A stretch of 19,417 bases of DNA. It comes from a virus. The number at the start of each line of letters is the position of its first letter. The stretch's first letter is position 1. Location of the stretch: UHGV virus genome UHGV-1532611. One strand, written 5' to 3'. Position numbers and translations under genes: made by a program. The notes beneath the pieces were generated by a model, which saw only the letters and a list, made by a program, of their open reading frames with translations, was not told the origin of the DNA and searched no databases. Positions 2,880-19,417 of the stretch are shown here, one piece after another.

Positions 2880-2880
2880 C

Positions 2881-2890
2881 ACTAAATACA
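2881..2890 (+). promoter_or_regulatory. Promoter-like motif actaaataca upstream of the capsid fusion gene
   Basis: Member of the recurrent intergenic motif family; the same 10-mer recurs inside the gene at 3427-3436. Confidence 0.3.
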
Positions 2891-2904
2891 TTCAGAAAAA
2901 CAAA

Positions 2905-2922
2905 GAGCGTCGAAAGACGCTC
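2905..2922 (+). promoter_or_regulatory. Stable GNRA hairpin in the 5' leader of the capsid fusion gene (not a terminator)
   Basis: gagcgtc-gaaa-gacgctc: perfect 7-bp stem with a GAAA loop, 16 nt upstream of ATG 2939, with no following U-tract. Confidence 0.35.
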
Positions 2923-2938
2923 CAACAGAGGACTGGTA

Positions 2939-4843: not shown

Positions 4844-4844
4844 G

Positions 4845-4874: not shown

Positions 4875-4894
4875 TGAAACTGCTGAATAATCAG

Positions 4895-4920
4895 AGGACT
4901 CCTTCGGGAGTCCTTTTTTC
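4895..4920 (+). terminator. Intrinsic terminator after the capsid gene
   Basis: 8-bp stem aggactcc / ggagtcct around a UUCG tetraloop, followed by a run of six T. Confidence 0.75.
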
Positions 4921-4929
4921 GTTTCTGGA

Positions 4930-4940: not shown

Positions 4941-4954
4941 AAAAAGGAGACAAC

Positions 4955-5251
4955 ATGATTTTTCCATATTCAGAAAAACAAAAACAGTCTTTCTTAACTC
5001 GTTTCGGACAGAAAATCAAAATTAACGATTCTGATGAACTCGGTATTGTTGAAATTGAGATTAACAACGATAACGGACAAGTAAGCGAGACAATCTATAT
5101 AACCGCTGATATCAATAAAGTTAAGCAAGAAGATGAAGTTCTATTAAACGAGATTCTGTATACCATTGCGTATCTTGTTAATGATGGTTCAGGACTTGCT
5201 AATTGTTATCTGGCATTTAAAGGCGAACAGGAGACATCATTCTATGACTAA
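4955..5251 (+). CDS. Hypothetical protein at the head-tail connector / head completion position
   Basis: 98-aa ORF with a strong SD (aaaaaggaga, 4941-4950). Lies between the capsid gene and the U-like gene. Function assigned from position only. Confidence 0.55.
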   Translation: MIFPYSEKQKQSFLTRFGQKIKINDSDELGIVEIEINNDNGQVSETIYITADINKVKQEDEVLLNEILYTIAYLVNDGSGLANCYLAFKGEQETSFYD

Positions 5252-5642
5252 TCTGCCACGTTTAGGAATTAAACGCGCTCTGGAAGAAATAATCGTTAAA
5301 GAACTTAATCTGAAATACGTCAAAAACGCTTTCACAACTGGTGTTAAAGAACCTGTTCAAGTAATGATTCCAGGAATGACAGAAGAATATACGCGAATCG
5401 GTTTGCAATCGAAACTTGCAAGTGTTCTTAGTATTACGATTGATATTTTCTCAGAGAAAAGCGAAACAGGCGTTCACAAAGCCGTTTACGACTTAATTTC
5501 TATTAAAGCTAATCATGAAAAACTTATCCCATTTAAAATCGATAAGATTTATCCAAGTTCGAGCTTCACTGATTATGATAGTGAAGCATCAAATGGTCAT
5601 GTTAGCGCACAAATAATTTTAACTTTCGAATACTTAATGTGA
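5244..5642 (+). CDS. Tail terminator protein (lambda gpU-like)
   Basis: Start chosen at ATG 5244 (SD aggaga at 5229-5234), which overlaps the stop of the upstream gene (ATGACTAA); the ORF track begins this frame at 5166. The product is 132 aa, like gpU (131 aa), and its C-terminus ILTFEYLM resembles gpU's VITYEM. Confidence 0.65.
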   Translation: MTNLPRLGIKRALEEIIVKELNLKYVKNAFTTGVKEPVQVMIPGMTEEYTRIGLQSKLASVLSITIDIFSEKSETGVHKAVYDLISIKANHEKLIPFKIDKIYPSSSFTDYDSEASNGHVSAQIILTFEYLM

Positions 5643-5649
5643 GACTAAA

Positions 5650-6675
5650 ATGACAAACGATATTTTTGTAGGAAATAACGTCAGAGTTTCAGTTAATCCG
5701 CTAATCGTTGAAATCCCAGGATATAACGACCCAGGTTATGTAAGCACTGATAAACTGGCTGCATTCCCTGTTATCGGATTTAGAAAAGAAGTTCAGACAC
5801 TAGAAGATTACAGAACCGATTTCACAACGAAACTTTCAGGTGACGTAACAATTAACGACACTTCAATAAGCTTATTTGAAGACAGTTCTGACCCAGTTTA
5901 TCAGTTGCTTGATGAAGCTCTTATGGAAAAGAAACTCCTTAGATTCAGAAGTCTTTATGTTATCGATGGAGAAACAAAGAAAGATAATGATGCTGGTCTT
6001 TATCATATTTTTAATGCTTATGTAACGAAGAAAGAAACATCAGGTTCGGCTAACTCAGTCGTTACAACAACTTTTAATCTTTCTCCTGATGGTCAGTTGT
6101 TTACAGGTTTTGCTGAATTCTCAGTTCCGTTAAACGTTGGCGATTATGGTATTGGTGCTGGTACAGAAGAAATCGCAGGCGTTAAAGACTTAGGATTATT
6201 AACTGGTAACAGATGTGTAACAGTCGATGCAACAAACAGCGATAACCCTTATAACTCTGGCACGTCTGCTATGGCTATTCAGCATCCTGATGGTCAAGGT
6301 TGGGAGCTTATTGGTTCGTCAGTCGGTAATCCAAGCATCAGAATCAGAAACAAACAACAAAGCGGTGAAACTGTTACTGAATCTCCGTGGGTCAAAGTCT
6401 ATACAGAACTTGAACGTCCAACTCCTGAAGATATTAATGCTTTGCCTATTACTGGTGGAGAACTCAAAGGATCTTTGACTATTCAGGAATATCTGAACGT
6501 TCGTAAAAAGATTTCTGCGCCACAAGGTGAAATCTTGGCTCTAAATAGTAATGAAATTAACTCAACTTCTGTCAAGGTCAAAGGCAAAGAAGTCTATTCT
6601 CCAAGTAATAAACCAACGCCATTAGAGATTAATTGTGTAGCGTTAGGAGAAACCTTAGACGCAGGAGTATTTTAA
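5650..6675 (+). CDS. Major tail (tube) protein, gpV-like N-domain plus a ~180-aa C-terminal extension
   Basis: Directly follows the U-like gene as V does in lambda. The N-terminal ~160 aa are paralogous to the 9833-10309 product (AFP..G..EV.T......KL.G......D shared). The C-terminal half is Ser/Thr/Gly-rich, consistent with an Ig-like decoration domain as in gpV. Confidence 0.65.
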   Translation: MTNDIFVGNNVRVSVNPLIVEIPGYNDPGYVSTDKLAAFPVIGFRKEVQTLEDYRTDFTTKLSGDVTINDTSISLFEDSSDPVYQLLDEALMEKKLLRFRSLYVIDGETKKDNDAGLYHIFNAYVTKKETSGSANSVVTTTFNLSPDGQLFTGFAEFSVPLNVGDYGIGAGTEEIAGVKDLGLLTGNRCVTVDATNSDNPYNSGTSAMAIQHPDGQGWELIGSSVGNPSIRIRNKQQSGETVTESPWVKVYTELERPTPEDINALPITGGELKGSLTIQEYLNVRKKISAPQGEILALNSNEINSTSVKVKGKEVYSPSNKPTPLEINCVALGETLDAGVF

Positions 6676-6687
6676 CGGATAAAGAAA

Positions 6688-9600
6688 ATGGCAAATAATA
6701 AAGTTAAACATTATAGAACAGACGTCGCCGGAAGAAAGCCAGAAGCGAAAAACATGCTTGATGGTGAAATCGCTATTAACTTAGCCGATAAAAAGATTTT
6801 TACTAAATTCGGTGACGCTGTTATTAACATCGGTAATGGTGCTGATGCTGTTGTTGAAGGCGGTCAGACCTTTACTGGAAAAATTAAAGCAAGTGATATT
6901 GAATCCGATTCTAATCTGACTTTAAAAAATCTTGATAAAAGCGATATTGTTTTTGCTGATGAACACGACAAAGCAAAAGCACGTATTAGTTCTCCTGCTC
7001 AGACAGACTCTAAAGGTGAACTTCGTGTTACGGTAGCGAAAGGAAAAGGTACAGGAGAGAGTTCTGACTTCGTGCTTAACGGTAATGGTCAGTTATCTTT
7101 GCCTGCTGCTCCTGTTGCTCCTGATAGCGCTACGCGTAAAGATTACGTTGATTCTGAAATCAGCAAAGTTCAAACAGGTTCAAGTGCTGACCTGACGAAA
7201 CTCGAACAGAAAGTTGATGCTAACGACGCTGCTATTAACACTCGCGTTGATAATCTGAATTCAAAAGTTGACCAGAACGACACGGCTATTAATACGAAAG
7301 TTGATGCGAATAAAGCTGATGCTGACGAAAAGATTAAAGCAGTTAATGACCGTTTGACTGTTGATAATCAGACTCTGAAAGACATGATTGACACCAAAGT
7401 TAATAAAGCTGGCGACACGATGACTGGCGACTTAACTGTTCCTTCTGTTCATGCTGCTGGTAATGTATACGCAGGAACTTTGAAAGTTACACCTGCTGGT
7501 AATAACGGTGATGTTCTGAGTATTGAAAACCACGGCAGAACTTCAAAGACTATTCATCAAATTGCATACGCAACGGATACGGATGATCGACTGTTATTTC
7601 GTCGTGATGCTAACGAAGGAACCGACGCATTAGATCTAATGACCATGACTTGGGGAAAAACAGGCAGAGGAATGTCAATTGATATTTCAGGTCAAGCTAG
7701 AATCACTGATGCAGTAACAACTCCTTTAATGTCCGTTGCAAGCAACTTTGCCGTTGGAAATTCACTGGGTTTAAACTCTATCGCGATTGGTGATTCCGAC
7801 ACTGGTTTTAAATGGAGAGAAGACGGATGGTTAAACTTCTATTCAAATAACGTTGTAACAGCTTCTATTGCAGGATCTGAAAACTACTTTAATAGAAAAA
7901 CTCATTTCCGTTTCAGAAGTGATGATGGTGATTCGAATCTGATGGCTCCTGAAGGTTATTCATTAATTAATATCGATACGACAACCGACGGTAATAACAT
8001 TGGTGACGCCACGACTTATTTCGGATTAGTTAATGGTGGAAAATATAATCATTATCTGAGAGGTTCAGGCAGAACTTATATTGATACTAAAGAAGGTCTT
8101 GGTGTTGCTGGCCCTGCAAGTTTCTATAAAACGATTTATAATAATAAGCCTTACGGATGGTATGACTCGGAAAGCTTACCCGACTGGAACACTCCTGAGC
8201 AACAATCAAATCATTTAAGAAAAGTTAGAGCCGTTGGTGCTGGATCCATTTATCATGAGTTGGCAATGGCTAATCATCCTGACGATAGGCTGGATAACTC
8301 TATATGTTGGTTTCATGGTGATACTCCTGAATATTGGATGGGTTCATTAAACACCAATGGTCGATTGAATCTTGCAAGTGGTGTTTCTGTCAACGGCGAA
8401 TCTAATGCTATTCAGTTGAATATTCCTGCGTCGAATCAGGCAAGTTATATGTCTGGCAATATGGACGGTCGCAATAATACCTGGATTCTTGGCAAGACAA
8501 GTGAGAATCTCGATATTGTCTGGTCTCAGAATATGAGAAATGATTTCTCTACGTCATCTGGTGTTACTCTTAGAACTAACGGATCCGTGACGGTTCAGAC
8601 TGGTACTAATACCGCGATGGATATTCAGCATAATACAATTCAAATTGATGGTGCAAGATGGGCAGCAACCAATGATCATGCTTACGCTAATCAATGGAGA
8701 CAAAATGCTCCTATGCAGATTAACTTCGGAGCAGTTGCTGGTGAAAGTGATTATTATCCCGGATATTCGATGAACTCTGTTTCCGTAGGACACGGATTCT
8801 CTACTGTTGTTGAATTAGGAACTATTAGAGGACCAGCTAATTCATGGGGCAAAGGAATTCTTCGTGTTGGGACGAAAGAAGAATCGACGTTCGGTAAAAT
8901 GGCTAATTATGAATTTGATATCGATGGTCGTTTTGCTGTTCCTGGAAAAATTAATACTCCTTCTGTTGAAACAAATCGTTTAACAAGTTTTGGTATTAAC
9001 ACGGACAACGTACTAGGTGGAAACTCAATCGCGTTTGGTGATAACGATACAGGTATTCGACAAGTTACGGACGGAAACTTAAGCATTTTTACTAATGGTA
9101 TTCAAATCGCAACCTTTAACACAGCTGGTTTGACAATTGATCGGTCAATTACGATTAACACCCATAATGAGTCTCGCGGTGTTTATGTTGGAAACGTTAG
9201 AACCGGGGCAAGCAATGCGATGATTCAAGGTGTCGTTGACGGTTGGCCGCAGTGGTCAGCGTGGCGTGATCGTCCTGCGGGAATGATTGTTGAAGCTCAG
9301 ACTCGTGATAAATGTATTAATATCTGGAAACATGTTCATTGGGGCACAGAATACGGTGCTGCGATGGACATTTATAATCCGGGTAGTTCTGCTCCCGAGG
9401 CTGCACTTCACATTGGTGGTGCAGACTATCTATTCCTCGGTAATGGAACAGCAAATGCGATCCAATGGGTTAGCACTTCTGATAAACGTCTGAAATCGAA
9501 CTTTGAAGAAATTGAAAACGCAGTTGATAAAGTCGAGAAACTTACTGGTTACGTATACGATAAGAAATCTGATTTAGTCAAAACTGAATATTCATTCGAA

Positions 9601-9771
9601 GTTCGTGAAGCAGGTATTATTGCTCAAGAACTGAAAGAAGTATTACCAGAAGCTGTTAGTTCTTTCGGACCTGACGAAATTCTTGGTGTTAACTCTGCTG
9701 CTGTAAACGCGTTGCTGGTTAATGCTATCAAGGAATTAAGTGCTCGCGTTAAAGAACTTGAAGCTAAATAA
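6688..9771 (+). CDS. Tail fiber protein with C-terminal S74-type intramolecular chaperone (auto-cleaving) domain
   Basis: 1027 aa. Contains the KAGDTMTGDLTV phage-fiber repeat motif, a helical repeat region (DANDAAINTRVDNLNSKVDQNDTAINTKVD), two copies of an LG.NSIA.GD.DTG motif, and the C-terminal SDKRLKS...GIIAQEL...AIKEL domain that closely resembles the T5 pb1 / K1F endosialidase chaperone domain. Confidence 0.88.
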   Translation: MANNKVKHYRTDVAGRKPEAKNMLDGEIAINLADKKIFTKFGDAVINIGNGADAVVEGGQTFTGKIKASDIESDSNLTLKNLDKSDIVFADEHDKAKARISSPAQTDSKGELRVTVAKGKGTGESSDFVLNGNGQLSLPAAPVAPDSATRKDYVDSEISKVQTGSSADLTKLEQKVDANDAAINTRVDNLNSKVDQNDTAINTKVDANKADADEKIKAVNDRLTVDNQTLKDMIDTKVNKAGDTMTGDLTVPSVHAAGNVYAGTLKVTPAGNNGDVLSIENHGRTSKTIHQIAYATDTDDRLLFRRDANEGTDALDLMTMTWGKTGRGMSIDISGQARITDAVTTPLMSVASNFAVGNSLGLNSIAIGDSDTGFKWREDGWLNFYSNNVVTASIAGSENYFNRKTHFRFRSDDGDSNLMAPEGYSLINIDTTTDGNNIGDATTYFGLVNGGKYNHYLRGSGRTYIDTKEGLGVAGPASFYKTIYNNKPYGWYDSESLPDWNTPEQQSNHLRKVRAVGAGSIYHELAMANHPDDRLDNSICWFHGDTPEYWMGSLNTNGRLNLASGVSVNGESNAIQLNIPASNQASYMSGNMDGRNNTWILGKTSENLDIVWSQNMRNDFSTSSGVTLRTNGSVTVQTGTNTAMDIQHNTIQIDGARWAATNDHAYANQWRQNAPMQINFGAVAGESDYYPGYSMNSVSVGHGFSTVVELGTIRGPANSWGKGILRVGTKEESTFGKMANYEFDIDGRFAVPGKINTPSVETNRLTSFGINTDNVLGGNSIAFGDNDTGIRQVTDGNLSIFTNGIQIATFNTAGLTIDRSITINTHNESRGVYVGNVRTGASNAMIQGVVDGWPQWSAWRDRPAGMIVEAQTRDKCINIWKHVHWGTEYGAAMDIYNPGSSAPEAALHIGGADYLFLGNGTANAIQWVSTSDKRLKSNFEEIENAVDKVEKLTGYVYDKKSDLVKTEYSFEVREAGIIAQELKEVLPEAVSSFGPDEILGVNSAAVNALLVNAIKELSARVKELEAK
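9478..9768 (+). other. Region of the tail fiber gene encoding the S74 intramolecular chaperone domain (aa 931-1027)
   Basis: The SDKRLK motif begins at codon 9478-9480, followed by the conserved GxxAQELKEVLPE and AIKEL...ELEAK segments; released by autocleavage in known homologs. Confidence 0.75.
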
Positions 9772-9774
9772 CAA

Positions 9775-9794
9775 AAAGGGGAGAAATCCCCTTT
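9775..9794 (+). terminator. Hairpin / weak terminator after the tail fiber gene
   Basis: aaagggga-gaaa-tccccttt: GC stem with a GNRA loop; the U-tract is short (three T, part of the stem). Confidence 0.5.
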
Positions 9795-9795
9795 G

Positions 9796-9805
9796 CTAAA
9801 TAAAC
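9796..9805 (+). promoter_or_regulatory. Promoter-like motif ctaaataaac upstream of the 9833 gene
   Basis: Directly after the 9775-9794 hairpin. A near copy (ctaaataac, 9764-9772) overlaps the fiber stop codon. Confidence 0.3.
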
Positions 9806-9832
9806 TATATTAACTCAAATAGGAAATTAAAA

Positions 9833-10309
9833 ATGGCAGACAAATTTGATATTTTTGCTGGCTCTTACGTCAGTGTGTTCTATAACTCAGAAATTGCAAA
9901 CACCGATCTGAATTCAGAAAAGTTTGTTGAAATTCCTGAAACTGGTGCATTCCCTTCTACGGGTATTGAACGCGAAGTTATTACAGCTCCTAACTTCTCT
10001 CACAAATACTCCCGTAAACTGGTTGGTCGTGGCTCTGTTCCTGATATCGACTTGACCGTTAACTATATTCCAGAAAGCGTTCATGATGTTCTGATTAAGC
10101 TTGCGGAAGATGGTAAACGTGGTCAGTTTAAAATCGTTTATTGGATTGATGCTACTAAAAAACTGGGTGTTGCAAAAGTTTATAACGGCTTCTTGTCAAG
10201 CGCTGTTCATAATGGCGGTGAATCAGAAGTTCAAGGTCTGACAATGACACTGAGTGTTGATGGTGGTCCTGTTGTTTCTGGTGTTGTTGATTTGACATCA
10301 AGTGATTAA
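9833..10309 (+). CDS. Tail-tube-fold protein: second gpV-like paralog, or a distal tail (M/Dit-like) ring protein
   Basis: 158 aa. Aligns by eye with the N-domain of the 5650-6675 product, and its C-terminal pattern (KIVYWID...VYNGFLSSAV) resembles the gpV N-domain as remembered. Preceded by a terminator and promoter-like motif, followed by a terminator. Confidence 0.6.
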   Translation: MADKFDIFAGSYVSVFYNSEIANTDLNSEKFVEIPETGAFPSTGIEREVITAPNFSHKYSRKLVGRGSVPDIDLTVNYIPESVHDVLIKLAEDGKRGQFKIVYWIDATKKLGVAKVYNGFLSSAVHNGGESEVQGLTMTLSVDGGPVVSGVVDLTSSD

Positions 10310-10313
10310 TTAA

Positions 10314-10337
10314 AAAGACTCCGCAAGGGGTCTTTTT
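10314..10337 (+). terminator. Intrinsic terminator after the second tail-tube paralog
   Basis: agactcc-gcaa-ggggtct (7-bp stem with one G-U pair, GNRA loop) followed by seven T. Confidence 0.7.
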
Positions 10338-10341
10338 TTGG

Positions 10342-10351
10342 CTCTAAATAA
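10342..10351 (+). promoter_or_regulatory. Promoter-like motif ctaaataaag upstream of the 10367 gene
   Basis: Exact 10-mer shared with 14477-14486 and 15967-15976; sits just after the 10314-10337 terminator. Confidence 0.35.
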
Positions 10352-10366
10352 AGTCAGAGGTGAAAC

Positions 10367-10783
10367 ATGTTTAAATTTCAAGCTGACTTATCAAAATTAC
10401 TTAACCGCTATATCAATCAGCAACACGTTTTCGGTCAAAACGACTGTAATATCCTTGTTGCTGAATATATCGACCTTGTTTGTGCTACTGAATACACAGA
10501 CAAATTAAAAGACAAATACACGAGTATTCCTGAAGGTCTCAAGATTTGCAAAGAGCTAACTGGTTTTAATAACGTTCTCGAAGCGTGTGAAACGCATCTT
10601 GAGAAATCAGAAACTATAGAAACAGGCTCGGTTATCTTAATTAAGAAAAAACATAAAAACCGTGTCTATTACGTTGCATCTATCGTTTTTAATAATAGAG
10701 CATTAGTTGAACATGAAAATAAATATCAACTGATAAACGTCAACGATTTTAATTTTGAATTAATTTTTAACAGGAGAAAATAA
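10367..10783 (+). CDS. NlpC/P60-like tail tip protein (gpK C-terminal domain homolog, no MPN/JAB domain)
   Basis: 138 aa. HVFGQNDCNILVAEY matches the Cys motif of the gpK NlpC/P60 domain (HGVTDCYTLF) and GSVILIKKKHKNRVYYVASIVFNNRALVEH matches GDVLL...NHAAIY.GDGELLHH. Stop overlaps the start of the J-like gene (TAATG). Confidence 0.5.
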   Translation: MFKFQADLSKLLNRYINQQHVFGQNDCNILVAEYIDLVCATEYTDKLKDKYTSIPEGLKICKELTGFNNVLEACETHLEKSETIETGSVILIKKKHKNRVYYVASIVFNNRALVEHENKYQLINVNDFNFELIFNRRK

Positions 10784-13700
10784 TGGCTATTGTAGCTATT
10801 GGTGCAATTATCGCAGGTGCTTCCGCGGCTGCTGCTGCTTACGCTGCGGGTGCTGCTCTTGCTTTGGCAATTGGTATTGGTGTCGCTGTTGCTGCTGTTT
10901 CTGCTTTGATGTCAACTCAGATGGCGCAGAACGTTCCCCGATTTAACAGCACAGACACAGCAACGACATTAGGAACAACGTCAGATCCATCAAGTGTTAT
11001 TCCTATTATCTATGGTGAACAGCGTACAGGTACGATTAACGTTTGGAAAGCTGTTGGCGTTGATACGACATATTTGGTTCAGATCTTTGCAATCTGTGAA
11101 GGTGAAGTTGATAGCTTCAAAAACCTTTATATGGATAATCAGAAAATCTTACTTGATGGCGTTTATAAAGACGGTGTTCTTCCGAAAGGTTCAATCGCTG
11201 CTGAATATCAGCAATATGTTGAAGTTGAATTCTCAACTGGTAAGCCATACGGTCACGTTTTTACTCTTGCTCAGAAATATCTAGGAAATTCAGATGCTGG
11301 CTGGCCTGATTCTGCTACTGGTAATAACATCGCTGCTTGTTGTGTTGTTATGCGCAAACGTAACTCAGACCTTCAAAACCAAGCTGATATCCTGCAACCT
11401 AACAGTCAAGTATCTGTTGACGTTAGAGGACGTTTGATTACAGATCTGAACACAGGAGAACGCGTTTCCTCGAACAACGGTCCGAGTCAGATTGTTGATT
11501 ATCTAACAAATGATAGATACGGTCTTGGAATTCAGATTGATAAAATCGACCTTGATAGTTTTAAAGAAGCTGCTCGATATGCAAAACTGAACAGTTTATT
11601 TTCTGATGGTGCAACTGACCCGAACGGTTCATTCAAAGAAAACTTAACTCAGCTTGCAGGTGCATTTAACGGTATTATCACAGAGACTTTCGGTAAAGTA
11701 ACATGCAGAATCGATGGACCTGATGTTGTTCAATATGACTTCAACGAAGATAATATTAACGCTGGTACTGTTAGCTTAAACGATGGCGGTTCTGAGAATT
11801 ATTACAATACTCTGAACGTGAAATATCAAGATCCGTCGATTGACTATTCTGACCAAGTTCTGCGTTATCCGTCTGACGTAACAAATGATGGAACAATCGC
11901 GAAAGATAAACGTATTATCGCTAAAGATATCAGTTACAGATTCGTGAAATCAAAATCTCAGTTGGATAAAATTGCTTCAATCGAACGTAACAAATCTCTG
12001 TTAAAGCAAGTTATTAGTTTTTCAACTGCTGATGCTTATACCGCACAGGTCTGGGATGTTATCAGAGTTAATTTCTCTGAACTGGAACTTGTGAATTCAT
12101 TATGGCGTATTACTAATATCGATCGTTCGATGAATAAAGGTGCTGCTGGTATCGTTACTATTACTGCTTCTGAATATATCGAAGAAGTTTATACCAATCT
12201 TGACTACGCGAAAGACCCTGATAACACAGGAAGCAACATTCCTAATAAATCTGTTCTGATTGCTCCTAAGAATCTGACAGTTAAAGCAGTTGCTGAAACA
12301 GCTTTAGGAAGAACTCTGAAAGTTCAATGGACGTCTGAACCTGATTATAATCGCGCAGGTTATTATATTCAGTATAGTCTTGCTGGTAAGAACTCTTGGA
12401 TTCAAGCAGGTTTCACATCAGGCGATTATTTCTTGATTATGAGTCTTGACCCTAATCAGAAATTTGATATTCGTGTTTGTGCTTCTGGTGTTGTGTATCG
12501 TTCAGATTGGGTTTATGTCAATAACGTTAACCCTGAGGTTATGTATAACTTACCAGTCGTTACAGGACTGCACCTAGTGAACGCAGTTGAAAATCAATAC
12601 ACCACTAACAAGACTCAATTTGAATTCGCCTGGGACGACCAGAGCGCACAGAAATTCTATGTTGACGACACGTTACAGACATTCGGTGAAGTTTTTCAAT
12701 ATTACGAAATCAAAATTGAAGGTCAGCGTCCTGTAATTTACAAGACTAAAGACTTAGGTTTTGTATATGACTTTAATATGAACTTGGGTAATGGTCTGAG
12801 TCGTGAATTGAAAGTTTCTGTTACTGCATACGGTCACGCTGGTATGAAGTCAGATCCTGCTGTTATTACTGTTAAGAACAATCAAGCTCCTGCTATTCAA
12901 GGTTTCACAGCTTCGAATGGTCCTGGAATGCTGATGTGCTCTTGGAATGACCCACGCGATAATAAGCCTGAAGTTCCTGACTTCAAAGGCACAATCGTTC
13001 ATATTGCGAAAGACCAGAGTTTTAATGAAATTGTTCACGTTTATTCAAGTTCAAGTCCGTTCTTAGATAATTTTCCATTAGAAGATGGTCAATTCTATGT
13101 TCGTTCAGCTTGGTATGACGTATTCGGACAAGACCAGATTACTTGGTCAGAATCGAAGTTTATCGATATGAAATGGGATATTCCGTGGACTGACGATATG
13201 AAAGAACAGTTAAACGATTTGCTTGATTTGGATAAACGTGTTGATGGTGCTATCGATGAAGCATTAGACCTCGCTAACAAATACACTGATACGAAAGTTA
13301 CAGCATCCGAGCAAAAAGTTACTACTGAATTAAATCAGACTATCACGACGAAAAACACCGAACTTCATACTCAGATTACTAATGAAACTAATGGCGCTAT
13401 CAATCAGGCTATCAGTATTCAAGAATCTAACTTTGATGGAAAACTTAACTCGGCTATTACGAAAGTTGAAAAAACTCAAGCTGATGATAGACAAGCAACC
13501 GCAAGTTCAATTAATCAATTGAAAGCTGAAACAAACACAGCTATTGCAACAGTTAGTCAAGAATCAAAAGCAAGCGTTGACGACTTAACAGGAACGATTA
13601 ATAGCAAATGGGCAGTTCAGACTAATGCCGACGGTGTTGTTGCTGGTATCAGTATGCTGGCTAATAAGAATCCTGACGGTTCAAAACAGTCTAGTATTGT

Positions 13701-14472
13701 TTTTAACGCTGATAAAATCGCTATAACGAATAACAATACTCCTGCGGGTGCTGTTGCTCCGTTTATGGTCGCTGATAACAGAGTTTATATGGATTCTGCA
13801 ATGATTCGTAATGCTTCTATCGGTTCAGCACAGATTGCAGATGCTTCTATTAACAACGCTAAGATTCAAAACGGTGCTATTAACAACGCGAAGATTGAAA
13901 ACGGTGCGATTACTACTGCGAAAATTGGTAATGCTCAGATCGGTTCAGCACAGATTGCTTATGAAATATCTTCTGATAACTGGTTCCCTTCCGGTGGTAC
14001 TCAAGGTTGGACAATCAGAAAAGACGGTTGGGCTTCTTTCCAAAACGTTAATATCAGAGGTAACATTCAAGCAGATTCTGGTTATTTCGCAGGTGAAATC
14101 AGAGGCGGTTCAGGTTATTTCACAGGAACTGTATACGCTGACAGAATTGAAGGTGACGTTATCAAAATGGGTCATATAGATCCGTGGACAACAGTTCATA
14201 TTCCTGCTGTTAACTGGAACAGAGTAATTTCTATTCCAAACCTTTCGATTTCAGGCAGAACTTATTCCGGTGGTGCTTGGGGCTACGGAACTGCATGGAT
14301 TAATATGTCGAACGGTCAAGAAATCGTAAGAACAGTTACCAGTGCAATGAGTGGTTCAAACGGTGGTACAGGCATTATCTATGCGGGACAAGCTGTTGAT
14401 TTGAGTTACGGTGCTGACTTGAATCATGCGACCGCAGCAAGAGCAGTTTACTTTATCAGTAAACAACAATAA
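10783..14472 (+). CDS. Tail tip / host specificity protein (gpJ-like) with gpI-like N-terminal segment
   Basis: 1229 aa. The N-terminal Gly/Ala-rich hydrophobic stretch followed by VIPIIYGEQRTGTINV resembles the gpI C-terminus (VLPVLYGEMRVGSRVV). IVDYLTNDRYGLG matches the gpJ LTHPRYGMG region. Two FN3-like segments, a helical region and NAKIxNGAI-type repeats are present, and WAVQTNADGVVAGISM...FNADKIAI resembles gpJ [20 protein letters not shown]...VAANRIAF. The C-terminal ~170 aa are the likely receptor-binding domain. Confidence 0.85.
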   Translation: MAIVAIGAIIAGASAAAAAYAAGAALALAIGIGVAVAAVSALMSTQMAQNVPRFNSTDTATTLGTTSDPSSVIPIIYGEQRTGTINVWKAVGVDTTYLVQIFAICEGEVDSFKNLYMDNQKILLDGVYKDGVLPKGSIAAEYQQYVEVEFSTGKPYGHVFTLAQKYLGNSDAGWPDSATGNNIAACCVVMRKRNSDLQNQADILQPNSQVSVDVRGRLITDLNTGERVSSNNGPSQIVDYLTNDRYGLGIQIDKIDLDSFKEAARYAKLNSLFSDGATDPNGSFKENLTQLAGAFNGIITETFGKVTCRIDGPDVVQYDFNEDNINAGTVSLNDGGSENYYNTLNVKYQDPSIDYSDQVLRYPSDVTNDGTIAKDKRIIAKDISYRFVKSKSQLDKIASIERNKSLLKQVISFSTADAYTAQVWDVIRVNFSELELVNSLWRITNIDRSMNKGAAGIVTITASEYIEEVYTNLDYAKDPDNTGSNIPNKSVLIAPKNLTVKAVAETALGRTLKVQWTSEPDYNRAGYYIQYSLAGKNSWIQAGFTSGDYFLIMSLDPNQKFDIRVCASGVVYRSDWVYVNNVNPEVMYNLPVVTGLHLVNAVENQYTTNKTQFEFAWDDQSAQKFYVDDTLQTFGEVFQYYEIKIEGQRPVIYKTKDLGFVYDFNMNLGNGLSRELKVSVTAYGHAGMKSDPAVITVKNNQAPAIQGFTASNGPGMLMCSWNDPRDNKPEVPDFKGTIVHIAKDQSFNEIVHVYSSSSPFLDNFPLEDGQFYVRSAWYDVFGQDQITWSESKFIDMKWDIPWTDDMKEQLNDLLDLDKRVDGAIDEALDLANKYTDTKVTASEQKVTTELNQTITTKNTELHTQITNETNGAINQAISIQESNFDGKLNSAITKVEKTQADDRQATASSINQLKAETNTAIATVSQESKASVDDLTGTINSKWAVQTNADGVVAGISMLANKNPDGSKQSSIVFNADKIAITNNNTPAGAVAPFMVADNRVYMDSAMIRNASIGSAQIADASINNAKIQNGAINNAKIENGAITTAKIGNAQIGSAQIAYEISSDNWFPSGGTQGWTIRKDGWASFQNVNIRGNIQADSGYFAGEIRGGSGYFTGTVYADRIEGDVIKMGHIDPWTTVHIPAVNWNRVISIPNLSISGRTYSGGAWGYGTAWINMSNGQEIVRTVTSAMSGSNGGTGIIYAGQAVDLSYGADLNHATAARAVYFISKQQ

Positions 14473-14476
14473 CGTT

Positions 14477-14486
14477 CTAAATAAAG
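14477..14486 (+). promoter_or_regulatory. Promoter-like motif ctaaataaag upstream of the 14518 gene
   Basis: Exact 10-mer, 4 nt after the J-like stop and 31 nt before ATG 14518. Confidence 0.35.
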
Positions 14487-14517
14487 ACAAGGAGGTCTTT
14501 TAAAAAGGAGATTCAAG

Positions 14518-14802
14518 ATGGTCGATATAGCACTGATCATTTCCATCTTGGGTGCTCTAGGAGGTTTCTTGGCTTGGGTTTATGCCGAAATTAAATCAAA
14601 CAATGAAAAACGAATTGACCTTGAGAAACGTTTCTCAGACATCGAAAAAAGCATAGCCGTTAATGACGCAAAAGATGCTTCGCTTATAAGCGATATAACA
14701 CGACAACAGGATGAATTTCGAGAGGTCAAATCTGATTTGAAGAATTTAGAAGGAAGAACAGCAAAGCTAGATATCGACCTAGCAGTTCTAAGAGGAAAAT
14801 GA
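14518..14802 (+). CDS. Small membrane-anchored coiled-coil protein (one N-terminal TM helix); function unknown
   Basis: 94 aa with two SD-like elements upstream (aaggagg 14489-14495, aaggag 14505-14510). IALIISILGALGGFLAWVYA is a predicted TM helix, followed by a charged helical region. Stop overlaps the next start (ATGA). No cysteine, so not a lipoprotein. Confidence 0.6.
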   Translation: MVDIALIISILGALGGFLAWVYAEIKSNNEKRIDLEKRFSDIEKSIAVNDAKDASLISDITRQQDEFREVKSDLKNLEGRTAKLDIDLAVLRGK

Positions 14803-15275
14803 AAAGAAAAGAGATTCCGATTTATAAGCAAGAACTCTTTCAAAAGCAAAAAGGTCTTTGTGCTTTAACTGGCATAAAGATTCATGAAGTTAATAAAGCC
14901 CATCTTGACCATGACCATATATTAACAGGCTCTAACGCAGGCAGATGCAGAGGATTATTAATCGCTCAAGCAAACGTCCTAGAGGGCAGAATAAAACATC
15001 AGTTTAAACGTTCGGGTCTCGATGGGAAAATTGACTACATCGAGTTTTTGAAGAATCTTGTTCAGTATCTTGAAAAAGACTACTCAGACAATCCTACGCA
15101 TCCACAACTTATTCCTGATTTAAAGAAGGCGTTCTCTCGAAAAAATCTTTCTGAGATGAAAGCTATTACAGGTTCAAACCTTAAAACGAAAAAGGAGCTT
15201 GAAAAAGTCTACTCAAACCAAATAAAGGTGAAATATGAAAATGAAATATCTCCAAGCATTGGCAAAACACGCTAA
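14799..15275 (+). CDS. T4 endonuclease VII (gp49)-like junction-resolving / HNH-fold nuclease
   Basis: 158 aa (T4 endo VII is 157 aa). HLDHDH, GRCRGLL, N..EG and KHQFKRSGL.G..DYIEFL.NL..YL..DYS.N..HP are collinear with T4 endo VII as remembered. The catalytic Asp/His/His/Asn/Glu equivalents are present. Confidence 0.8.
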   Translation: MKRKEIPIYKQELFQKQKGLCALTGIKIHEVNKAHLDHDHILTGSNAGRCRGLLIAQANVLEGRIKHQFKRSGLDGKIDYIEFLKNLVQYLEKDYSDNPTHPQLIPDLKKAFSRKNLSEMKAITGSNLKTKKELEKVYSNQIKVKYENEISPSIGKTR

Positions 15276-15432
15276 AGATTATCTTATTGTTCTATTTCTC
15301 GTTACTATAACTTATAACACTGTTGCTGTTCCTGTTCTGCAAGCTTTCGATATTAAAGCACCTAAAATGATTCTTATCAGCGAAGAACAGATAAAAACAT
15401 TTGGGACGCTTCTGATGTCAGGAGTGAACTAA
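15235..15432 (+). CDS. Small single-pass membrane protein, hypothetical
   Basis: 65 aa with SD aaggtga (15222-15228) before ATG 15235. Predicted TM helix YLIVLFLVTITYNTVAVPVL. Overlaps the 3' end of the endo VII-like gene by 41 nt in another frame, and its stop overlaps the next start (TAATG), so the call is tentative. Confidence 0.4.
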   Translation: MKMKYLQALAKHAKDYLIVLFLVTITYNTVAVPVLQAFDIKAPKMILISEEQIKTFGTLLMSGVN

Positions 15433-15974
15433 TGGCAAAAGCAAAAGATGTTATGAAAGACCTTGAAAAATGGCGAATCAAAGAATCTGACGTGTTCAGT
15501 AAGAAAGTAACCAAAGCGTCTAAACTCGCTTCTGTTGAGTTGCAAAGAAAAATCAACAGACGAGTCGATGGACCAGTTAATTTCACTAAGAACGCAGTAG
15601 GTTTCAGTTTCAGATACGATCAGAACGGGTCACGAAATAGAATATTCATCAAAGACAAGCAGGCTGATTATCTTGCTCCGTTAATTGATGATAACAAAGG
15701 AATTAACAAGTTTGTTCCAACTGGTGTAAGAGGTTCAAAGAACAAATTCGGTAACATTCCTAACTTGAAATCAAGAAATAATCTTGAAGCTGTCAAGCAA
15801 AAAAAAGATGGCGTAACTCGAACGATCCTCATTAAAACTAACGTTAAAAAGCAAGACCGTCGTTTAATTGCTGTATTCAAGAAAAATCAACACAGAAGAA
15901 AAACTCTGGGTTCATGGAATCAAATCTCTGACGATATATTCAAAACCGTTAAGCGTGTTGCGGGTACTAAATAA
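15432..15974 (+). CDS. Lys/Arg-rich basic protein, hypothetical
   Basis: 180 aa, strongly basic, no cysteine. SD ggagtga (15421-15427). No recognisable family by eye. Confidence 0.6.
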   Translation: MAKAKDVMKDLEKWRIKESDVFSKKVTKASKLASVELQRKINRRVDGPVNFTKNAVGFSFRYDQNGSRNRIFIKDKQADYLAPLIDDNKGINKFVPTGVRGSKNKFGNIPNLKSRNNLEAVKQKKDGVTRTILIKTNVKKQDRRLIAVFKKNQHRRKTLGSWNQISDDIFKTVKRVAGTK

Positions 15975-15976
15975 AG
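15967..15976 (+). promoter_or_regulatory. Promoter-like motif ctaaataaag upstream of the 15992 gene
   Basis: Exact 10-mer overlapping the stop codon of the 180-aa gene, 15 nt before ATG 15992. Confidence 0.35.
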
Positions 15977-15991
15977 TCAAAAGGAGAACAA

Positions 15992-16309
15992 ATGAACATT
16001 CACGATTTTGATACTTACAGATTAGACGAACTTGCCGACATCTACGTTAACGAGATTAATCCCGAGTCAATGACTGTTCCTTACGGTTGCGAACACATCA
16101 AAGATAAGCGAATTAAAAAATATCTGTTCAACGATAAGAACGTTTTTATTGTTTCAACACAGAAGAAAAAACCTAATTGTCATTTCAAATTAGGACAGAC
16201 AGTTCGACTGCAAGGTCCATTTTTTGAGACCGAAGCGAAGAACTTAGGAATGATTGAATATATCCACAAAGGTTTCAGAATGTACGGATATTTCTTTCAA
16301 TGGAAATAA
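15992..16309 (+). CDS. Hypothetical small protein (moron-like unit)
   Basis: 105 aa with a strong SD (aaaaggaga, 15977-15985). A promoter-like motif lies upstream (15967-15976) and a terminator hairpin immediately downstream (16311-16336). Contains two Cys and several His. Confidence 0.65.
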   Translation: MNIHDFDTYRLDELADIYVNEINPESMTVPYGCEHIKDKRIKKYLFNDKNVFIVSTQKKKPNCHFKLGQTVRLQGPFFETEAKNLGMIEYIHKGFRMYGYFFQWK

Positions 16310-16310
16310 C

Positions 16311-16336
16311 AAAAGGGAGCCTCGCGCTCCCTTTTT
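16311..16336 (+). terminator. Intrinsic terminator after the 105-aa gene
   Basis: gggagc-ctcgc-gctccc stem-loop flanked by aaaa upstream and ttttt downstream. Confidence 0.7.
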
Positions 16337-16348
16337 CATAAATAAAAG
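16337..16348 (+). promoter_or_regulatory. Promoter-like motif cataaataaaag upstream of the G-like chaperone gene
   Basis: Directly after the 16311-16336 terminator, 24 nt before ATG 16373. Confidence 0.3.
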
Positions 16349-16372
16349 AAAACTCAACAAAGGGAAACAAAA

Positions 16373-16681
16373 ATGAATTTCGATGAAATGTTAGCAAGTC
16401 TTTCGCCTTCTCGCGAACCAGTAGAAATCAACGGCTTTAAATTCTATGCTCGTCCTATGACCGTATCTGAATTCGGTGAATTCTATTTCAAAAATGAAAA
16501 CACAGAAGAACGTAACGACCGAATGATTCTGAATTGTATTCAACACGAAGACGGAACTCCTGTTTTTAAAGAAATCGCTCAAGTTCAGAAACTTTATACC
16601 ACTGTTCGTTCAACTCTTGCTAGTGCTGTTTCTACTGCCAGTATTCTCAGTAAGAAATCAGACGTTCTGGAAAAGAACTAA
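16373..16681 (+). CDS. Tail assembly chaperone (gpG-like)
   Basis: 102 aa immediately upstream of the tape measure gene. EINGFKFYARPMTVSEF resembles gpG FEHNGVTVTLSELSALQ. Its 3' end overlaps an open -1 frame (the T-like frame). Confidence 0.6.
   Translation: MNFDEMLASLSPSREPVEINGFKFYARPMTVSEFGEFYFKNENTEERNDRMILNCIQHEDGTPVFKEIAQVQKLYTTVRSTLASAVSTASILSKKSDVLEKN
16669..16675 (+). other. Candidate -1 ribosomal frameshift site (G GAA AAG) for a G-T fusion
   Basis: GGAAAAG lies in the G-frame 2 codons before the G stop, inside the G/T overlap. It differs by one base from the lambda G-T slippery site G GGA AAG; the A-site AAG to AAA slip is canonical. Confidence 0.35.
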
Positions 16682-16716
16682 GACAGAACTGGGCTAAATC
16701 ATTTCAGTATAGAACA

Positions 16717-17079
16717 ATGCTACGTCGCGGATTATCTAACGATGAAATTCAACAGATGTCCGTGATGATGTATTACGAACTATGGTTTTTCGACTCGTTT
16801 ATTGAACCTCAAGGTCCTGTCTATAACGATTTCTATCAAGCACGTTTGGTCCACACTATCGAAGCTAATAATCCTAATCTTACAAAAGAATATAGGAAAA
16901 AGCTCAACATGAAAGATCACCTGCTTATTAAAGATTCTGTGTTTAAGTCTCAAGAGGAAATCGAAAAAGAGAAAGAGCAACAGGAGCTTAAACGCAAGAA
17001 AGCTGTTGAATCGATGTTCGACCCTGCTCTGTTAGACAAAGTTAGACTGAAACAACAAAAAAAGGTGAATAATGGCTAA
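16717..17079 (+). CDS. Tail assembly chaperone T-like segment, probably made as a G-T fusion by -1 frameshift
   Basis: The frame is open from 16624 and overlaps the 3' end of the G-like ORF in the -1 frame. ATG 16717 has no SD. Stop overlaps the tape measure start. Coordinates are those of the ATG-initiated ORF; the fusion product would begin at 16373. Confidence 0.5.
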   Translation: MLRRGLSNDEIQQMSVMMYYELWFFDSFIEPQGPVYNDFYQARLVHTIEANNPNLTKEYRKKLNMKDHLLIKDSVFKSQEEIEKEKEQQELKRKKAVESMFDPALLDKVRLKQQKKVNNG

Positions 17080-19417
17080 ATCACGTTATGACGTCGAGAT
17101 TAACGGAGATAACAAAGGCCTATCAATTTCTATTGACAAGTCCATGAAGAAACTGAATGAACTCGATTCAGTAGCTAATGGACTTTTTAGTAATATGACA
17201 GGACCGTTGAATAATCTCAACAACGGAATCTCAGGTATTGCAGGAATGTCCAAGGGTATGCAAGCTCTGGGGATTGCAGGAATGGCAGCAGGTGCAGGTG
17301 TAGCTGTTCTTAATACCGCGTTAGAAAAAACGAGAGAACTCAATCAACTCTCTACATCAACTGGTCTTTCAGTTGAATATCTGCAACAACTTAAAAATGA
17401 ATTTCGCGAAACAGGTATGGAGATTGACCGTTTCGGAGATTTAAACAAAGACACATTAGATAAACTTGGCGATTCATTCAGAGAAGGTCATGGCGGTATT
17501 GCAGACGACCTCAAAGAATGGGGTATTGGTCTTGAACAGTACACACAATACGTCAACGATGCCCAAGGCGGTATTAAAGCGCTTGTTCAGACTTATTATG
17601 ACCTGAAAGCTGCTGGTGCAAGTCAAGCTGAAATCGTGAACGGAATGGAGTCAATGGCTTCTGATGCTTCACATTTGATTTCAACTCTTGAAAAATACGG
17701 TTCAACTCAAGACGCATTAAACGCTATTAACAATCGTTCTGTTGATATCACAAACGAAACAGCAAAAGAATATAAAGAATTCGACGAAAACATGAAAACG
17801 TTAACCGTCAATCTGGATAATCTAACTGTTAACGTTATGAGTCCGTTAGTTAAGAAAATGAACGACCTGTTCGAAATTGCTAATAAAGATTGGACAGCAA
17901 GTAACTTTTTAGACTTCATGGGAACATTAAGCACGTTGCGTCCTGATGCTGCTCTTTCTGATTGGGCTGCCGAAGCGACTGTTAACAAAATGGGCGAATG
18001 GATGCCTAATGCGGGTTTTGCTAAACGTAGAAAAGCAATTGCAGATGAAGAAAAGTTTCAGAAAGATATTGCCGCAGCAAGAATCAAAGCTGATGAAAAT
18101 CTTCGTTTACAGCAAGCAAATGCTAAAACTGCCGCAGATCTGAAAAGAAAAAAAGATGCATTAGCTGCCGAAGACGCTAAGAAAGAAGCTGAAAAAGCTA
18201 AACGCGAAGCTGACAAAATAGCAAGAGAAGCTAAAGCTGCTTATGATAAGATGATGCAAGAGCGTCAGACAGCGTTACAGAATCTTTCCAGTCTTGATGC
18301 TGCAATTCTCAGTCAAGAAGGCAGAACTATTTCTAGTCAAGTCAGTAAAGTTAGAGAAGCTGTTGAAACAATCGACGAACTTGAAAAGAAAGGAATAATC
18401 AGCGCTACACAGGCAAATCAACGTCGTAAAATGCTTTTTGAGAATTCAAACAAAGAATTCAAACAAACTCTTATGGCAAGTCCTGAAGAAATCGGTGCTA
18501 TTACGTCGAGTCTTGAAATCGTATATCAACAACAACTTGAACAACTCGAAGCTAAGAAAGCCCAATCGCTTATCGGTCAGAAAGAATATAATTCTCAGTT
18601 AGAAGCTATTCAGAAAGACCATCAGCAACGTCTTGAAGCAATTAAAGCGACTGCTGGCGATGGTAATATGTCTAATCTTAAAAATCTTGATGCTATCGGT
18701 TTTGCAACTGATGAAGAAAAAATGGCTATTCAACAGAAAATGTTGGAAGAACAATTTCAGAAGATGCAAGAACAGAACCAAAAGCTATATGACGGACAAT
18801 TGATTTCTTATGAAGATTATCTCAAACAGAAACAGCGTCTTGAGCAAGCTTATGCGGTTAAATCGAAAGCAATTACTTTCACTGAGATTCAGACAAAACT
18901 CCAGATGTATAACGGTTTTGCTTCTGGTATGGGTGCAGTTATAGCCGGTATTTCTGGTGAAAACTCTAAAGCTGCTCAAGCAATGTTTGCAGTTGAAAAA
19001 GGAACAGCAATCGCAAGCGGTATGTTAAACGCTTATGAATCAGCAACTGCTTCAATGGCAAAATATCCTGGTCCTTTAGGTTACGCTCTGGCTGCTTCAA
19101 GTTATGCAAGAGTTATCGGACAAGTCATGCAGATGAAATCAGTGAATCTTACTGGTATGGCTCACGATGGTATTTCTAATGTTCCAAGAGAAGGGACATG
19201 GCTGCTTGATGGTGGCGAACGTGTCGTTGATGAAAGAACAAACGGCGACTTGAAAGACTTCTTAGATAATCAGAAAACAGGAGGCGAAACAAAAATCGAC
19301 GCAAGTATTCACGTTTCAGGGAATGTTACTGATCAGCGTTGGTTTGCTGAACAATTAAAACGTCAGCAACAGAACATCGCGGCTATTGTTCAAGACAGCA
19401 ACAGACGCAAGATGTAA
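17072..19417 (+). CDS. Tail tape measure protein
   Basis: 781 aa, largely helical and Ala/Gln/Lys/Glu-rich, with Gly/Ala-rich hydrophobic segments near both ends (GIAGMAAGAGVAVL; GMGAVIAGISG), directly after the G/T-like chaperone pair. Using the lambda rule of about 0.15 nm per residue this predicts a tail of roughly 115-120 nm. Confidence 0.8.
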   Translation: MAKSRYDVEINGDNKGLSISIDKSMKKLNELDSVANGLFSNMTGPLNNLNNGISGIAGMSKGMQALGIAGMAAGAGVAVLNTALEKTRELNQLSTSTGLSVEYLQQLKNEFRETGMEIDRFGDLNKDTLDKLGDSFREGHGGIADDLKEWGIGLEQYTQYVNDAQGGIKALVQTYYDLKAAGASQAEIVNGMESMASDASHLISTLEKYGSTQDALNAINNRSVDITNETAKEYKEFDENMKTLTVNLDNLTVNVMSPLVKKMNDLFEIANKDWTASNFLDFMGTLSTLRPDAALSDWAAEATVNKMGEWMPNAGFAKRRKAIADEEKFQKDIAAARIKADENLRLQQANAKTAADLKRKKDALAAEDAKKEAEKAKREADKIAREAKAAYDKMMQERQTALQNLSSLDAAILSQEGRTISSQVSKVREAVETIDELEKKGIISATQANQRRKMLFENSNKEFKQTLMASPEEIGAITSSLEIVYQQQLEQLEAKKAQSLIGQKEYNSQLEAIQKDHQQRLEAIKATAGDGNMSNLKNLDAIGFATDEEKMAIQQKMLEEQFQKMQEQNQKLYDGQLISYEDYLKQKQRLEQAYAVKSKAITFTEIQTKLQMYNGFASGMGAVIAGISGENSKAAQAMFAVEKGTAIASGMLNAYESATASMAKYPGPLGYALAASSYARVIGQVMQMKSVNLTGMAHDGISNVPREGTWLLDGGERVVDERTNGDLKDFLDNQKTGGETKIDASIHVSGNVTDQRWFAEQLKRQQQNIAAIVQDSNRRKM

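Follow-up and report, generated by a model that had tools for sequence, protein, structure and literature searches.

Tail gene order in an Escherichia coli prophage differs from that of its sister lineages

The 19,417-nt stretch of UHGV virus genome UHGV-1532611 analysed here (the window) matches the chromosome of Escherichia coli MS 115-1 (NZ_CP146665.1) at 100% identity by megablast and lies within an annotated prophage of approximately 34 kb that sits between ybiT and ldtB. We find that the tail genes of this prophage are encoded in an order different from that of sister lineages with orthologous proteins, and that the breakpoints fall exactly in intergenic cassettes made of a hairpin and a TAAATA-containing motif. 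Our best explanation, to which as a whole we assign a probability of about 0.72, is that the window covers the late region of a temperate siphovirus, now defective, which a large serine recombinase inserted at ybiT/ldtB, and that this element belongs to a clade whose tail genes would have been reshuffled block by block, each block probably being an autonomous late transcription unit.

A preliminary description of the window had proposed that, in place of the lambda order U-V-G-T-H-M-L-K-I-J, the tail genes run U-like, V-like, fibre, second tube paralogue, K-like, I/J-like, accessory block, G-like, T-like and tape measure. The open reading frame (ORF) list and profile searches bear this order out (Table 1), and the product of 17072-19417 is still a tape measure protein (TMP) after a profile search that covered nearly the full phrog_13674 profile (1e-69). 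The J assignment also held, with PDB matches to the J-like gp24 (6e-6) and to lambda J. The gene in the K position encodes a DUF6950 protein whose profile has no PDB match and whose single-sequence AlphaFold2 model is unusable (predicted local distance difference test score, pLDDT, of 45.6); its likeness to K is positional. Among the proteins of the element, no I homologue was detected and no K was recognisable as an MPN plus NlpC/P60 protein. The tail terminator was identified by structure, as an AlphaFold model built from 18 homologues (pLDDT 83) matched lambda gpU in PDB entries 8iyd_K (Foldseek E = 4.7e-8) and 3fzb; PDB sequence and profile searches and Pfam scans of this 132-residue protein family gave no useful match.

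The two tube paralogues share 28% identity over 145 amino acids, the whole of the tube domain (E = 1e-10). Paralogue 1 (tube+Ig, for its immunoglobulin-like part) matches phrog_158 weakly (1e-5), and paralogue 2 (tube2), which had no PDB sequence match, has distant homologues that carry the lambda-tube Pfam families PF16461/PF16460. At the other end of the window, a candidate slippery site (G GAA AAG, 16669-16675) lies in the overlap of the G-like and T-like genes and reads A AAA AAG in two relatives. The -1 overlap and an equivalent A-AAG site were present in 11 of the 11 loci where both genes were located, and a frameshift is predicted; in one relative the T-like ORF also has a weak match to PF06223 (Phage_tail_T).

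The preliminary description had also pointed downstream of the window for M and L homologues. Nothing phage-like follows there: the TMP gene, whose end is the window end, is the last prophage gene ahead of the attachment junction, and the next gene, host ldtB, begins 300 nt downstream. Instead, Dit (phrog_1302, 2.5e-22) and a hub protein are encoded on the minus strand at the left prophage end (positions 2928-4138 of L002, our numbering of the MS 115-1 prophage locus, which reaches beyond the window). The hub N-terminal domain belongs to PF09931 (DUF2163, phiJL001 Gp84 N-terminal; phrog_2048, 9.5e-20). These two genes diverge from the lysozyme gene and lie approximately 30 kb from the TMP gene on the opposite strand, with the attachment junction, the integrase and one further gene in between.

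Table 1. Features of the window, with strand and the evidence for each
Feature	Coordinates	Strand	Evidence or remark
IS3-family element, right end	1..82		bases 1 to ~90 match many unrelated E. coli loci
Large terminase, C-terminal part, gpA-like	92..817	+	phrog_15 1.4e-30; RefSeq annotation
Head genes overall	838..4843	+	PHROG matches; Pfam Peptidase_S78 and Phage_capsid in relatives
Head-tail joining protein	838-1332	+	PHROG match
Portal	1329-2879	+	PHROG match
Prohead protease fused to major capsid protein	2939-4843	+	PHROG; Peptidase_S78 and Phage_capsid in relatives
UUCG-tetraloop hairpin and T-run after capsid gene	4893..4916	+	GGACTCCTTCGGGAGTCCTTTTTTCGTTT
p98, head-tail connector candidate	4955..5251	+	position kept in relatives
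Tail terminator, lambda gpU-like, 132 aa	5244..5642	+	AlphaFold2 model and Foldseek
Tube paralogue 1	5650..6675	+	tube domain residues 1-148, then Ig-like/fibre-like C-terminal part; lambda V position
Side tail fibre	6688..9771	+	phrog_1699 1e-114; mosaic, highly variable
Hairpin GGGGA-GAAA-TCCCC and CTAAATAA (9796-9803)	9778..9803	+	37 nt ahead of tube2 start
Tube paralogue 2, tube domain only	9833..10309	+	phrog_158 5e-16
Breakpoint 1, terminator-like hairpin (stem 10317-10332, T7 run to 10339)	10310..10366	+	canonical relatives have G after tube2
DUF6950 protein	10367..10783	+	PF22262 1.6e-10; conserved N-D-C motif (alignment); lambda K position
J-like central tail tip/fibre protein	10783..14472	+	phrog_31 5.7e-61; PF09327 (Phage_Tail_Tip) 2e-23
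CTAAATAA motif	14477..14484	+	41 nt ahead of p94 start
Accessory block (p94, endonuclease VII, p65, p180, p105)	14518..16309	+	profile searches
Endonuclease VII, T4-type	14799-15275	+	profile match
CTAAATAA motif	15967-15974	+	precedes p105
Breakpoint 2, hairpin GGGAGC-CTCGC-GCTCCC and T5 (16315-16336)	16310..16372	+	canonical relatives have the lysozyme region after p105
Tail assembly chaperone, G-like	16373..16681	+	phrog_344 1.2e-6; PF16459 weak
T-like extension ORF, -1 frame	16654..17079	+	overlaps G end by 25 nt
Tape measure protein, complete	17072..19417	+	phrog_13674 1.1e-69, profile positions 10-759 of 764

Relatives hold the same blocks in several arrangements

We placed orthologues by tblastn in 25 loci and grouped the genes into five blocks: A (p98, U-like, tube+Ig, fibre, tube2), B (G, T, TMP), C (Dit, hub), D (DUF6950, J, p94, endonuclease VII, p65, p180, p105) and E (lysozyme). 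The canonical order A-B-C-D-E, all on one strand, is found in a Hafniaceae scaffold (L017), an Edwardsiella-type contig (L019), a truncated locus of Atlantibacter hermannii (L018), a widespread second E. coli lineage (L027) and the first 26 kb of PQ671644, the record of phage DCP80 (L001). MS 115-1 and its relatives are arranged as A-D-B, attachment site, integrase, inverted C and E, and Pantoea ananatis has this type with the divergent lysozyme|Dit-hub cassette flipped. Two Logan contigs read D-B, two genes, inverted lysozyme, C and integrase, with the tail genes all co-oriented. Klebsiella pneumoniae, together with related contigs, has A-D running up to either the attachment site or an integrase on the minus strand, and B placed after lysozyme beside an inverted C.

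The canonical sisters are orthologous to the MS 115-1 element throughout (24-68% identity) and share with it the two tube genes flanking the fibre, the accessory block after J, the intergenic cassettes and the serine recombinase. They differ in keeping tube2-G-T-TMP-Dit-hub-DUF6950-J on one strand and in carrying the integrase, where it was seen, on the minus strand after the lysis genes. The proposal that the window is rearranged relative to the canonical siphovirus order is therefore upheld by these sisters, with a different extent. Since U-like, tube+Ig, fibre and tube2 are conserved in every relative of both kinds, neither the fibre nor tube2 belongs to a displaced block as had been suggested, and it is the stretch from DUF6950 to p105 that has moved relative to G-T-TMP and Dit-hub. 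Likewise, of the three junctions singled out beforehand, the one near 16310-16370 is a breakpoint, but those near 6680 and 9780-9830 are not, the adjacency of fibre and tube2 being kept in all arrangement types. The true breakpoints lie at 10310-10366, where tube2 directly precedes G/T/TMP in canonical relatives, at 16310-16372, and just past 19417. The accessory block follows J in all relatives, and in the canonical ones it continues to the lysozyme gene.

Mis-joins near 10.3 kb and 16.3 kb in a single assembly would produce the same picture, and short repeated hairpins at the junctions could in principle mislead an assembler. However, the finished chromosome of MS 115-1 has the same colinear order, as do four complete E. 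coli genomes at approximately 87% nucleotide identity and PSS-15, which shares 76% nucleotide identity and 59-85% protein identity with MS 115-1; in all, five or more further complete E. coli genomes, with nucleotide identities of 76-87%, are colinear. It recurs in Enterobacter hormaechei, with the same ldtB-type flank, and in IMG/VR and Logan contigs from unrelated projects, so that at least 10 independent assemblies share the tail order of the window, among them relatives whose proteins are no more than 58-85% identical. The misassembly raised as a concern at the outset is thereby excluded for practical purposes, and we regard the chance of an artefact as negligible. The same comparison shows that the order is no one-off: it is the norm of a sub-clade comprising Escherichia, Enterobacter, Citrobacter and Pantoea-like members, with Klebsiella variants. 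Such sharing had been put forward as grounds for calling the order a lineage norm and not a rearrangement; it is a lineage norm, yet it also appears to be derived.

The TMP-Dit-Tal triad has been described as conserved (PMC7291167), and because the canonical order is common to other siphoviruses, the order of the window is best read as derived and the canonical one as ancestral. The opposite polarity, in which the window order would be ancestral and the lambda-like order of the sisters secondary, draws on the fact that our trees are unrooted or midpoint-rooted and that polarity comes from outgroup reasoning only. We consider it highly improbable, as the canonical order is shared by essentially all other long-tailed non-contractile phages and occurs in four or five deep branches of the group, and the non-canonical genomes form one clade with several mutually different arrangements, as derived states would. 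Under the preferred polarity, passage from the canonical to the observed order takes, at a minimum, a block transposition, an inversion and a move of the integrase cassette.

The preliminary description also offered module exchange as a cause, in which an unrelated phage would have supplied the TMP block or the tip block for insertion at a new place. Phage mosaicism is common, the fibre is clearly mosaic, with identity down to 33-77% between relatives that are otherwise close, and the head-gene tree is incongruent with the tail trees. Against import, neighbour-joining trees of Dit+hub and of DUF6950+J each gather every non-canonical genome into a single clade that excludes the canonical ones, and that of G+T+TMP recovers the same clade except for one genome (L022), which groups with canonical genomes under midpoint rooting. 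Because these separate block trees recover the rearranged clade, with similar relative divergence, they argue for movement of the blocks within the lineage. In addition, the nearest relatives of G, T, TMP, Dit, hub, DUF6950 and J all fall within this phage group, and no second, displaced copy of any block is left. Import of either block is thus improbable in our judgement.

Hairpin and TAAATA cassettes stand at the block boundaries

Both internal breakpoints have the same layout, in which a stop codon is followed by a GC hairpin with a T-run, the motif C(A)TAAATAA, approximately 20-35 nt of spacer and the next start codon. The motif reads CTAAATAA at 10344-10351, 23 nt ahead of the DUF6950 start, and CATAAATAA at 16337-16345, 36 nt ahead of the G start. 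The same cassette follows the capsid gene, where the hairpin is succeeded by CTAAATAT at 4930-4937, 25 nt ahead of the p98 start, and the fibre gene, and the motif by itself precedes the genes of the large terminase, capsid, p98, p94, p105, lysozyme and Dit. In general form, NNTAAATA is strand-specific, stands 20-60 nt ahead of the first start codon of each block and is found upstream of at least 10 late genes, and most blocks terminate in a GC hairpin with a T-run.

Counts in the late region agree with this placement. TAAATA occurs 14 times in the sense and 0 times in the antisense direction; seven copies fall within 712 intergenic nt (Fisher p = 1e-7), and most copies scored as coding lie at gene ends just before the next start. 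For the pattern C[AT]?TAAATA, 11 of 16 sites are 20-60 nt upstream of a start codon. The motif is kept at homologous junctions in nearly all relatives and in every arrangement type, where the surrounding sequence has diverged, and the cassette is missing at a few junctions in canonical relatives, for example after tube2 in the Hafniaceae scaffold. Two divergent copies occupy the 45-bp gap between Dit and lysozyme, a pair also present in the relative with the flipped cassette. The earlier suggestion that terminators and promoter-like motifs mark the unit boundaries therefore stands for terminator-like hairpins and a recurrent promoter-like motif, but this motif is not of sigma-70 type: a generic scan for sigma-70-type promoters returned 25 sites against 36 expected by chance and so lends ordinary promoters at the boundaries no support.

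Block B is flanked by two near-identical hairpins, the one at breakpoint 2 and another after the TMP stop codon at L002 34398-34419, 6-27 nt past the window end. Both read GGGAGC(C/A)TCGCGCTCCCTTTT, with the full forms GGGAGCCTCGCGCTCCCTTTT and GGGAGCATCGCGCTCCCTTTT. The recombination that brought the block to its place may have left them behind, although the element draws on a small vocabulary of hairpins, which makes the resemblance weak evidence. A further possibility, that Dit-hub is an invertible segment, was discarded, as no meaningful inverted repeats flank that cassette.

We propose that the ancestor of the group carried the order terminator, tube+Ig, fibre, tube2, G, T, TMP, Dit, hub, DUF6950, J, accessory/lysis genes and lysozyme, and that in this clade the tail genes would have been re-ordered as intact blocks. 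In the lineage of MS 115-1, the segment from DUF6950 to p105 would have come to lie right after tube2, G-T-TMP after p105 and up to the attachment site, and Dit-hub past the integrase, in opposite orientation and divergent from the lysozyme gene. The motifs would be late promoters and the hairpins terminators. Block order could then change because each block would be an autonomous late unit: virion assembly would rely on the proteins alone, gene order would be irrelevant to it, and recombination in the repeated intergenic cassettes might move or flip whole units harmlessly. Certain pairs would be kept together, namely G/T with TMP, Dit with hub and DUF6950 with J.

In form, the motif resembles the late promoters of T4 (TATAAATA) and of cyanomyoviruses (NATAAATA), with which it shares an AT-rich 8-nt extent, an invariant TAAATA core, the lack of a -35 element, strand specificity and a location shortly upstream of late structural genes. 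Of the 8 positions of the T4 consensus it agrees with 6-8, and the form CATAAATA fits NATAAATA. In contrast to T4 late promoters, many sites here read NCTAAATA, the phage that carries them is a temperate siphovirus and not a T4-like myovirus, and the promoter role is putative. The hairpin after the capsid gene (window positions 4895-4924) shares approximately 29 identical nt with the terminator that follows soc in T4-like phages such as YUEEL01, an identity that could reflect convergence on a UUCG-tetraloop design or horizontal transfer.

Taken at face value, the likeness would mean that NNTAAATA is a true T4-type late promoter and that the element, having no sigma factor of its own, is a helper-dependent or parasitic temperate siphovirus borrowing gp55, gp33 and the clamp of an infecting T-even phage to express its structural-gene cassettes. 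The T4-identical capsid hairpin, the T4-like endonuclease VII and fibre domains, and the joining of the DCP80 siphovirus to a T4-like genome fit this idea without establishing it, and we hold it to be very unlikely. A milder version, in which the group encodes a late factor of its own and a design with one promoter per cassette frees gene order, is possible, and we advance it tentatively.

Selection on the rearranged genome type and the state of individual copies

Between MS 115-1 and PSS-15, which both have the rearranged order, the ratio of nonsynonymous to synonymous substitutions (dN/dS) ranges from 0.06 to 0.37, with dS saturated, for Dit, hub, both tube paralogues, DUF6950, J, p180, p105, G, TMP, portal and integrase, indicating that the tail genes are under purifying selection. 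Recent transfer between genera is suggested by a hub that is 100% identical to that of MS 115-1, carries the species name Citrobacter portucalensis and is listed on 177 contigs. The hub and the 132-residue terminator protein are encoded on hundreds of contigs. Because dN/dS is low and an identical hub exists in Citrobacter, these data favour a rearranged genome type that works as a mobile phage or did so until recently, though single copies are dead; intact members would be expected to form working virions.

These observations bear on the reading that the order is scrambling by decay, in which insertion sequence (IS) elements or random recombination would have shuffled a dead remnant to no functional effect. 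IS elements are indeed present, with an IS3-family element in the MS 115-1 terminase, IS2 together with a broken fibre gene in PSS-15, and one K. pneumoniae copy that is an IS-bounded deletion remnant, and no replication module was recognisable anywhere in the 34-kb element. Decay nevertheless leaves several features unexplained: every block is whole (the G/T pair with TMP, Dit overlapping hub, DUF6950 overlapping J), the breakpoints coincide with the cassettes, no IS lies at the breakpoints in MS 115-1, the order is common to several genera, and the dN/dS values and the identical hub imply selection and recent mobility. We think decay an unlikely source of the order.

The MS 115-1 copy itself is defective. 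RefSeq annotates an IS3 transposase (the element lies at L002 13671-14791) between two halves of the large terminase gene, and because the element interrupts this gene, the copy cannot package DNA; several of the 87%-identical relatives also carry an IS3-family transposase. The integrase at the left prophage end is a serine recombinase (Resolvase PF00239, 3.8e-20; Recombinase PF07508, 3.7e-14). In a search for attachment-site direct repeats, the two prophage junctions had no word of 8 nt or longer in common, which is expected of a serine-type integrase and gives no boundary information.

Several points weigh against block-wise reshuffling of autonomous late units. The promoter and terminator roles are putative, drawn from position and conservation, and no homologue of gp55, gp33 or gp45 was found among the proteins of the element in PHROGs and Pfam searches, which might miss remote ones. 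The trees are unbootstrapped neighbour-joining trees with midpoint rooting, the head-gene tree is mosaic, and several equally short paths lead from the canonical to the observed order, so that no unique stepwise path can be derived. Finally, the copies at hand are damaged in both MS 115-1 and PSS-15, so that particle formation by members with the exact order of the window is putative.

Comparison with known tail modules

The lambda-type module of lambdoid and HK97-like phages shares with this element a gpU-fold terminator, a V-like tube with an Ig-like C-terminus, a G/T chaperone pair with a predicted -1 frameshift directly before TMP, Dit, hub, a J-like Phage_Tail_Tip protein and a side fibre. 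Among the features by which we compared the two, the terminator fold, the V-type tail tube protein, the chaperone pair, TMP and the J-like tip are all found here, whereas Dit and hub do not come right after TMP and the order is not colinear on a single strand. Here the tip genes precede G/T/TMP, Dit and hub are approximately 30 kb off on the other strand across the attachment site, tube2 and the fibre lie between the V-position gene and the rest, and DUF6950 takes the K/I position.

Tips of the RcGTA/phiJL001 type encode Dit, a DUF2163 hub, a peptidase and a host-specificity protein contiguously after the TMP gene. Common to these and to the present element are the PF09931 hub and a small protein between the hub and a large J-like protein; the four contiguous tip genes of RcGTA are split into two units here. 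A further likeness concerns phage T5, in which the distal tube paralogue p140 is tied to the collar and side fibres. In the group described here, a second tube-domain protein is encoded beside the side-fibre gene, which suggests by analogy that one of the tube paralogues may form a specialised fibre-anchoring ring. The side-fibre gene is flanked by the two paralogues in every member of the group, and paralogue 1 ranges from 278 to 699 amino acids through extra Ig-like or fibre-like parts.

Tail-gene order is among the most conserved traits of long-tailed phages, and its cause is debated, with co-transcription, assembly and ease of module exchange all proposed. The group amounts to a natural experiment on this question: orthologous sister lineages hold either the classical order or at least five different arrangements of the same intact blocks, and TMP is parted from Dit and hub by both integration site and strand, yet all these genes are under purifying selection. 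If each hairpin-and-TAAATA unit is autonomous, gene order would normally be held in place by transcriptional architecture. In practical terms, annotation that relies on synteny, with Dit/Tal expected after TMP, and tools that call prophage boundaries will mis-call such elements. The resemblance of the late signals to those of T4 intrigues us most.

Other features of the element and its relatives

Within the accessory block, p94 consists of an N-terminal transmembrane helix and a coiled coil, p65 of one transmembrane helix, and p180 is basic. The genes of p94 and p65 bracket that of endonuclease VII (14518-15432), and both products look like lysis proteins, holin- or spanin-like in their predicted features. 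PDB searches with p180 and a Pfam scan of its family gave no useful match, and p98 had no family match in PHROG and Pfam searches.

Outside the window, the small terminase gene (phrog_57, 6e-21) is at L002 6543-7064, 5.5 kb upstream of the large terminase gene (12630), with the minus-strand early region and a retron lying between the two. Between the lysozyme gene and the early region is defence-type cargo (L002 5022-9325), consisting of a small ORF, a TIR-domain protein and a retron Ec67-family reverse transcriptase/endonuclease. A link between retron Ec67 and a 34-kb element at this map position was considered and dropped, as the literature puts the classical Ec67 in a 186-like prophage. In relatives of the Klebsiella type the slot after lysozyme holds G-T-TMP, and in other relatives a PIN-domain gene.

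E. coli 2021CK-01361 (NZ_CP107720.1) is 100% identical to window positions 1-11774, including the IS end; the match ends within the J-like gene, and 17 places in the record match, a pattern that suggests further IS-associated truncation in that strain. One K. pneumoniae locus (L023, UJNE01000001.1, 3085-12114) is a prophage remnant with an IS beside a 25-residue integrase fragment. It has lost everything from the small terminase to p105 and keeps TMP-T-G, lysozyme, Dit and hub, and in a second K. pneumoniae genome (L024) the opposite prophage end adjoins the host junction of the first. Megablast of the Klebsiella-type contigs against E. coli genomes returned no match, and a scan of genome contigs with the hub alignment gave one locus only.

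In the cultured-phage collection, no relative was found other than the DCP80 record. This 141-kb entry (PQ671644.1, "Escherichia phage DCP80") is filed under Straboviridae, and its positions 1 to ~26260 are a siphovirus of the present group, from terminase to lysozyme, in the canonical tail order; the record looks like a chimeric assembly or a lysate of two phages.

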